From positions 1 to 64,000 of the IMG/VR virus record IMGVR_UViG_3300028588_000001: a DNA stretch of 64,000 bases, one strand, 5' to 3'. Below the pieces are notes generated by a model. That model had not been told where the DNA came from, did not search any database, and was given only the letters and a program-made list of their open reading frames with translations. This document shows positions 34,017 through 34,607 of the stretch, one piece after another. Within the stretch, counting starts at the first letter, position 1. Every line of letters begins with the position of its first letter. Made by a program: the position numbers and the translations under genes. Source of the stretch: a virus. Taxonomy: Duplodnaviria > Caudoviricetes.

Positions 34017-34257
34017 GAACGTCGCGCCACTTCCCAGATAGGGCTGGGCGCAGAGCGAAAGGAAGGCCGGCCCGTGTGGGTCGGCCAGTTCCGAGGCTGG
34101 AATCAGCCCCGAACAAGAGAGCCGGCCGGGCGCCGTTTGTCTTGTTGGTCGCGCACTGGATGCGGGTTAGCTCCGCATTGGTAATGAGCGGCATGAGTAT
34201 CCCAATTGGTTGAGAAAGCACACGGCTTACAGTGAGCGGTGGGCGGCCAACAGACAA

Positions 34258-34311
34258 CACTCCCTGACGAGCCCGTGAGATCCGGGCGAAACGCCGTGAG
34301 GCGTAGGAGTG
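34258..34311 (+). ncRNA. Type I hammerhead ribozyme core
   Basis: Stem I CACUCC/GGAGUG; CUGACGA (34264-70); stem II GCCCG/CGGGC; GAA; stem III ACGCC-GUGA-GGCGU; cleavage triplet GUA, with cleavage predicted after 34305. Confidence 0.9.
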
Positions 34312-34581
34312 ACCGCAACGAGCACTTTCCCCGGGCACAGCGGTTATACCGGGGCAGCCATACGCAAGACATAGGACGCCACCTCTGTGCGCGAGATTTG
34401 ATAGGCCGTATGGGCAATGAGGTTGACACTCTGGAAAGACAGGGGCCGTGATGTTGTATCGACTGCCCGCGCCCGGACGGTCCCCTGCAGGGGATAGTGA
34501 GTCTGACGGGGCTCGCGAAAAGCTCGGTAGGACATCGCCAGTTTTCAGCCGCCTTTCTGTAAAAAAGTCGGGCCACATTCC

Positions 34582-34607
34582 AAGCCTCGCCTCGTGCGGG
34601 GCTTTTT
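34582..34607 (+). terminator. Intrinsic terminator of the tRNA/ncRNA transcript
   Basis: AAGCCTCGC-CTCGT-GCGGGGCTT-TTT. Confidence 0.75.

Follow-up and report, generated by a model that had tools for sequence, protein, structure and literature searches.

A predicted hammerhead ribozyme joined to a conserved non-coding domain in the late-operon leader of two related phages

Hammerhead ribozymes of phages have been catalogued since 2011, and most of them lie directly before a ribosome-binding site and its gene. In lambdoid phages, the lysis, packaging, and structural genes are preceded by a late leader, the PR'-tR' interval with 6S RNA, and Stx phages have tRNA genes downstream of the late promoter; we know of no hammerhead or conserved non-coding RNA domain in lambdoid late leaders. 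A third point of comparison is the pair GOLLD and ROOL, which we take to be Rfam families RF01998 and RF03087. Both are phage encoded, several hundred nucleotides long, and found beside tRNA genes, and the cryo-EM paper on them mentions no hammerhead in either (bioRxiv 10.1101/2024.12.08.627333). Phage and prophage hammerheads, for their part, flank genes (Perreault et al. 2011, PMC3088659).

The stretch analyzed here (the window) covers the initial 64 kb of an IMG/VR virus record that is 79.8 kb long, with a G+C content of 63.8% and a terminal repeat of 127 bp. Like the lambdoid late leaders, it has a conserved promoter block and a short terminated leader before packaging and structural genes, with a slot for tRNA cargo, and like GOLLD and ROOL, the leader has an adjacent tRNA gene, tRNA-Gln, in a virus record with terminase and portal genes. 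The landmarks of the leader, with identities to a sister phage (L002) and to more distant relatives, are as follows.

33836-33939, + strand: promoter-like control block, 82% identity to L002 and 73-80% to L271, L104, and L085
33940-34016, + strand: tRNA-Gln with anticodon UUG, called by ARAGORN and by the Rfam tRNA model (55 bits)
34024-34051, + strand: hairpin H1, whose AGAUA loop is conserved, shared by six leaders (window, L002, L084, L098, L104, and L271)
34582-34607, + strand: intrinsic terminator (34582-34604 plus U-tract) at the leader end, found by terminator scan and identical in L002
34626-35069, + strand: first gene after the leader, from the ORF list, for a small membrane protein of 147 aa with a weak MFS-like transmembrane match

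The tRNA-Gln is the single tRNA placed by ARAGORN and Rfam. Later genes encode the terminase small subunit (37247), the terminase large subunit (37854), and an SU10-type portal (39684), as assigned by PHROG matches. Since the membrane protein, terminase, and portal genes come next, we take the interval to be the leader of the late (packaging and structural) operon. An earlier sequence-only reading had described the stretch between the tRNA and the terminator as gene free, and this holds: the terminator scan is positive, no credible ORF lies between tRNA-Gln and the ATG at 34626, and the ORFs of the interval are without a Pfam match. The longest of them (227 aa, minus strand) overlaps tRNA-Gln and is fragmented in L002. 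A coding reading was rejected on account of the missing Pfam matches, the lack of ORF conservation, and indels of 2 nt and 94 nt relative to L002, and ToxI-like or CRISPR-like repeats were likewise rejected as the identity of the interval.

The control block contains TAAAAT at 33889-94 followed by CAATTCGATAG...GCGAAA, and its form common to all relatives is TGGnnAAACnnGCA, about 25 nt, TAAAAT, and then CAATTCGATAGnCTnAAAAACTGnCTCTnGCGAAA. Among the relatives, drawn from portal relatives in IMG/VR and from assemblies of Massilia, Janthinobacterium, and other Oxalobacteraceae, the block motif heads the leaders of L084, L098, L103, L104, L271, and L273, which also share the late-gene order with the window. 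Distant relatives have in common the promoter-like block, hairpin H1, and the terminator followed by TTTTTTCATG. What lies between differs from phage to phage: the leader of L103 is about 70 nt long with nothing between the shared ends, those of L084, L104, and L271 hold H1 only, that of L098 holds H1 and then tRNA-Asn, and that of L273 holds about 330 nt of other sequence. The leaders of all these relatives lack the hammerhead and the domain described below. In the comparison with lambdoid leaders, none of the eight ORFs tested (19.8-25 kb) has a PHROG match to a Q-type antiterminator, and a consensus sigma-70 scan of the control block found no site, so promoter function is put forward for the block as a candidate role only.

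H1 is the best documented of the shared elements. Across the six leaders, 85% of its cells are paired, compared with 38-55% when the partners are slid, and its pairs vary between G-C and A-U and among C-G, G-C, and U-G (L084 7263-7290, L098 6928-6955, L104 ~5632-5660, L271 ~4935-4963). The loop region, CCAGAUAGG, is invariant, including in late leaders without tRNA-Gln or hammerhead. Judged by this distribution, H1 is an ancestral leader element, and it may be the core functional element of the leader, e.g., a processing or antitermination site.

Our preferred explanation, which we consider probable though by no means settled, is that the interval is a variable late-operon leader that acquired tRNA-Gln and an RNA cassette headed by a hammerhead. 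The general order is promoter-like block, variable cargo, intrinsic terminator, and late genes, and the cargo of the window and L002 consists of tRNA-Gln, loosely conserved hairpin modules, and a hammerhead fused to a probably pseudoknotted domain. Because the leader slot is empty or otherwise filled in close relatives, it offers natural with/without comparisons for the function of the hammerhead and the RNA attached to it.

The sister phage L002, an 80-kb IMG/VR contig found by a terminase-based search, is the single close relative with the cassette and carries the same tRNA-Gln (3843-3919), hammerhead, and terminator. Across the 13 kb compared, the genes of the two phages are 66-79% identical, and the best-conserved segment of all is 34259-34442, at 88% identity, with the domain (4372-4511 in L002) at 93%. 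The strongly conserved part amounts to about 185 nt, comprising the hammerhead and about 137 nt behind it; a ribozyme is joined here to a domain conserved above any neighboring gene. The first 240 nt of the leader, by comparison, are mostly unalignable with L002, and hairpin modules come and go; alignable outside the core are H1, a AACAAGAGAG motif, the strands of a module termed D2 with its inner hairpin, and a 3' hairpin with the terminator.

The hammerhead proposed from the sequence proves to have a full core, three stems, and a canonical junction, with the following parts.

34258-34311, + strand: predicted type I hammerhead, from sequence and from an MFE three-way junction in both the window and L002
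34258-63/34306-11, + strand: hammerhead stem I, 6 bp, open
34264-70, + strand: hammerhead core CUGACGA, from sequence
34271-75/34283-87, + strand: hammerhead stem II, 5 bp with a UGAGAUC loop, opened by a G-C pair
34288-90, + strand: hammerhead GAA, from sequence
34291-95/34300-04, + strand: hammerhead stem III with a GUGA loop

All invariant positions are present (C3 U4 G5 A6 N7 G8 A9, G12 A13 A14, A15.1-U16.1, and H17), including the A34291-U34304 pair, and with a GUA triplet cleavage is predicted between A34305 and G34306. The core is invariant in L002, where stem III is remodeled and has a GAAA loop; the stem pairs hold in 16/16 cases in the window and in 14/16 in L002. In isolation, the 60 nt around it fold into a three-way junction (z = -3.4), the L002 copy gives the canonical junction as well, and MFE and centroid folds of both phages show three helices, with loops closing stems II and III and stem I left open. 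The RF00008 score of 17.1 bits lies below the Rfam gathering threshold of 48.5, and RF00163 gives no match to the hammerhead at E <= 10; automatic annotation would thus miss this ribozyme.

Compared with described phage type I hammerheads (RF00163/RF00008; PMC3088659), the window has the same core, three-stem junction, open stem I, and intergenic site. Many unrelated phage contigs have this stem II and loop too, usually between a stop codon and the next ribosome-binding site, in keeping with the gene-flanking location described for phage and prophage hammerheads (PMC3088659), and stem II and loop are identical in at least four unrelated IMG/VR phages. A stem I/loop II tertiary contact takes the form of a pseudoknot in about 40% of hammerheads (PMC3088659); by eye, other phage copies with a similar loop II have an apparently complementary 4-5 nt upstream of stem I, and no clear conserved stem I-loop II partner was seen in the window or L002. 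Judged from these sequence features, the ribozyme alone is an ordinary phage hammerhead, and its self-cleavage is a prediction. It differs from most phage hammerheads in its setting: a conserved non-coding domain of about 137 nt is attached to it, the leader around it ends in a terminator, and some 300 nt separate it from the next gene. In L279 (~3060-3420), an unrelated IMG/VR phage, a hammerhead with an identical stem II and loop lies about 100 nt upstream of two tRNA genes recognized by eye, a layout suggesting that hammerhead-tRNA neighborhoods recur in phages.

Directly behind the ribozyme lies the domain, whose helices were drawn by hand.

34306-34443, + strand: post-hammerhead domain of about 137-140 nt, 93% identity to L002, no Rfam match
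34312-16/34340-44, + strand: helix S1, crossing S2
34329-34/34349-54, + strand: helix S2, crossing S1
34358-64/34407-13, + strand: helix Pb
34381-85/34419-23, + strand: possible pseudoknot, already noted in the sequence-only reading (5/5 complementary)
34429-33/34440-43, + strand: small arm

The hand-drawn core structure combines the three hammerhead stems with S1, S2, Pb, the pseudoknot, and the small arm. In the window and L002 together, 98.8% of its cells are paired, compared with 32-41% when the partners are slid, and the sole unpaired cell is the outermost stem I pair in L002. Three pairs (in S1, S2, and the arm) show compensatory changes and one changes from U-G to C-G, with no disrupted pair in the domain. 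In a shuffle control on the core, 60/500 shuffles reach the observed value; because only two sequences are compared, covariation power is low, and the compensatory changes count as consistent support and not as proof. The nested-fold stability of the domain, computed without pseudoknots, is like that of shuffles (z = 0.0 and +1.0). RNAalifold on the two sequences breaks the hammerhead, and its fold was disregarded. No Rfam family matches the domain with cmscan down to E <= 10.

The unremarkable predicted stability, a 41-nt run in the domain that is invariant between the two phages, and the position of the block about 3 kb upstream of the terminase genes would also suit a different reading, in which the ribozyme only processes the transcript and the conservation of 34306-34443 reflects a DNA-level site for packaging or protein binding near those genes. 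We regard this as extremely improbable, since changes in the proposed helices are compensatory in 6/6 cases and accompanied by the U-G to C-G change, which is unexpected for a DNA site, and since relatives with homologous terminase and portal genes do not have the block 34306-34443.

Some sequence in the domain has look-alikes elsewhere in the family of leaders. Its GAGCACUUUCCCCGGG (34321-34335) resembles a motif, GGGCACUUUCAAGGGG, that follows the promoter block in L104 (5540-5556), L271, and L273, and in L098 a comparable ACGAGCACUU lies 3' of the tRNA. Going by these sequences, part of the cassette may descend from an ancestral leader, or the resemblance may be accidental.

For the preferred reading of a variable leader with an acquired cassette, we infer that the upstream block drives transcription, that the ribozyme cleaves in vivo, and that the released domain has a role. 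A transcript from the conserved block would run from tRNA-Gln through the spacer modules and the hammerhead into the domain. By self-cleavage at 34305/34306, it would then free the tRNA-bearing 5' part with a 2',3'-cyclic phosphate end, and the 3' RNA would begin with a 5'-OH directly at the conserved domain. This 3' RNA would stop at the terminator as a stable RNA of ~300 nt (about 302), or, alternatively, terminator read-through would yield a late mRNA with a 5'-OH. An RNAalifold prediction suggests that the post-cleavage 5' end could pair with 34340-50, as an extension of S1, hiding the end. The released domain might stabilize the RNA as a 5' cap structure, or it might act in trans or bind protein; a search for antisense targets in the phage genome gave nothing >13 nt. 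A bolder proposal is that 34306-34443, pseudoknotted and released by the hammerhead with a 5'-OH, is the first member of a new class of phage RNAs with a regulatory or effector role, and that the ribozyme is its dedicated 5'-end maturase. We treat this as speculative and rather unlikely; if true, a constitutive late leader could be the source of a trans-acting RNA or a protein sponge.

Outside the core, the leader contains several further modules.

34065-34086, + strand: hairpin H2, 9 bp, pair probability 0.99-1.0
34138-34256, + strand: module D2, with a closing helix at 34138-42/34252-56 and 34144-52/34243-51, both MFE helices
34160-65/34173-78, + strand: inner hairpin of D2, with an A-U to C-G change in L002
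34444-34536, + strand: window-specific hairpin insert, not in L002, with a 14-bp arm of the sequence-only reading
34549-34571, + strand: local hairpin with a CUGUAAA loop (34549-56/34564-71); in L002, both sides of two pairs differ and a mismatch is repaired

At the relative place of H2, L002 has a hairpin of other sequence, and its D2 equivalent is a helix of 13 bp (4054-66/4157-69). Upstream of D2, AACAAGA (34112-34118) can pair with UCUUGUU (34140-34146; 4030-37/4052-59 in L002), and this pairing excludes the D2 closing helix, in which the UCUUGUUG strand is also used. The two alternatives are both kept in the window and in L002, so a structural switch is possible.

Such a competition, seen in both phages, would fit a cis-regulatory leader, in which the domain, by sensing a ligand or protein or through an effect on RNA polymerase, controls read-through of the terminator at 34582-34607 into the late genes, with cleavage tuning the outcome. 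The order of elements is indeed riboswitch-like, comprising an aptamer-like domain, a variable linker, a terminator, and a ribosome-binding site with ATG, and the MFE fold pairs GAGGCUGGAAU (34093-34103) with the 5' flank and strand of the terminator (34577-34588). By eye, L002 has a different 8-nt terminator complement, GCUUUGUG/CACAAAGC. However, shuffling shows the complementarity to the terminator to be no better than chance, and the anti-terminator pairing 34093-34103/34577-88 was rejected on this ground although it appears in the MFE fold. The two phages also differ in what lies between domain and terminator, with a 94-nt difference in spacing, and none of the known riboswitch or leader families gives a match. 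Moreover, relatives keep the block, terminator, and late genes without the cassette, which is thus dispensable for late-gene control. Taken with this evidence, a cis-regulatory leader of this kind is distinctly unlikely.

The sequence-only reading had instead joined everything from 34017 to 34607 into one closed multi-domain non-coding RNA of ~570 nt, a new class functionally like GOLLD and ROOL, with two nested helices (A, 34057-62/34552-57, and B, 34095-102/34543-50) joining its ends and the hammerhead as an internal maturation or nicking element. The listed helices are indeed complementary (A 6/6, B 8/8, 14-bp arm 14/15, pseudoknot 5/5, stem I extension 5/5), but neither A and B nor the arm is otherwise supported. 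Further in favor of a large RNA, the 5' halves of the leaders fold better than shuffles (z = -2.5 in the window and -3.6 in L002), and GOLLD and ROOL are likewise found close to phage tRNAs, with weaker conservation in their 5' region (bioRxiv 10.1101/2024.12.08.627333). In D2, compensatory changes accompany the conservation of the closing helix and the inner hairpin, which leaves room for some larger functional unit.

Against a closed RNA, helices A and B have an ensemble probability of 0.0, lie outside the MFE fold, and have no counterpart in L002, so that in the homologue covariation check, made with L002 only, the long-range helices are not conserved. They are also no better than shuffles: 11-38% of window shuffles and 35-97% of L002 shuffles reach the energy of the duplex between the 5' and 3' ends. 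The 3' strand of helix A is used by the covarying local hairpin 34549-56/34564-71, and the 5' strand of helix B can make a local GAAU-capped hairpin, at whose place L002 has a different hairpin. The 14-bp arm is no fixed element, since it sits in a 94-nt segment missing from L002, where BLAST and MAFFT join window position 34442 straight to 34537. As for the bulged helix next to stem I (the D2 closing helix), it is real and conserved, but it abuts the hammerhead only in the window, because L002 has ~155 extra nt between D2 and the hammerhead (D2 is ~160 nt away). For the whole 591 nt, folding is no better on the + strand (z = -1.8) than on the - strand (z = -2.35).

Nor does the ribozyme sit where it would nick a closed RNA, as it stands at the 5' edge of the conserved domain and would release it. 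Unlike GOLLD and ROOL, the window leader has only ~185 nt that are strongly conserved in its single homologue, end-joining helices that are unsupported, and modules that are inserted or deleted; the same slot is empty or differently filled in relatives. In cmscan searches of Rfam at gathering thresholds and at E <= 10, no GOLLD or ROOL match appears. We therefore give a closed RNA of the GOLLD/ROOL kind very little credence. Its helices illustrate that G+C-rich leaders easily give long-range helices by eye that fail shuffling or homologue comparison. What survives is the proposal of an uncatalogued conserved RNA and a hammerhead behind a phage tRNA on the + strand, with nothing in Rfam covering them.

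Searches for further copies of the cassette returned to the same two phages. No match to it was found by blastn against INPHARED phages and PLSDB plasmids, and it is absent from the portal and TerS relatives. IMG/VR pattern scans with three domain pieces hit the L002 contig only, bar chance matches of one pattern to coding sequence, two metagenome pattern scans for the domain gave nothing or chance matches, and a pattern scan of genome contigs gave nothing. A covariance model of the domain (R1) found nothing in 151 genomes of the family of a Massilia frigida record (G001), in the genomes of four relatives, or in ~1.7 Mb of loci that include ~120 hammerhead-bearing phage loci. A third homologue of the cassette was thus not found in any collection searched.

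Upstream of the control block, window positions 32372-33835, which include a minus-strand ORF at 32804-33631, have no BLAST counterpart in the corresponding part of L002 (3465-3740). This ORF is probably missing from L002, as judged by sequence comparison, and is therefore not tied to the RNA cassette. The divergent intergenic region also contains a perfect 10-bp inverted repeat with a 1-nt spacer, ATACTTGAAT T ATTCAAGTAT (33719-33739), which by its sequence looks like an operator.
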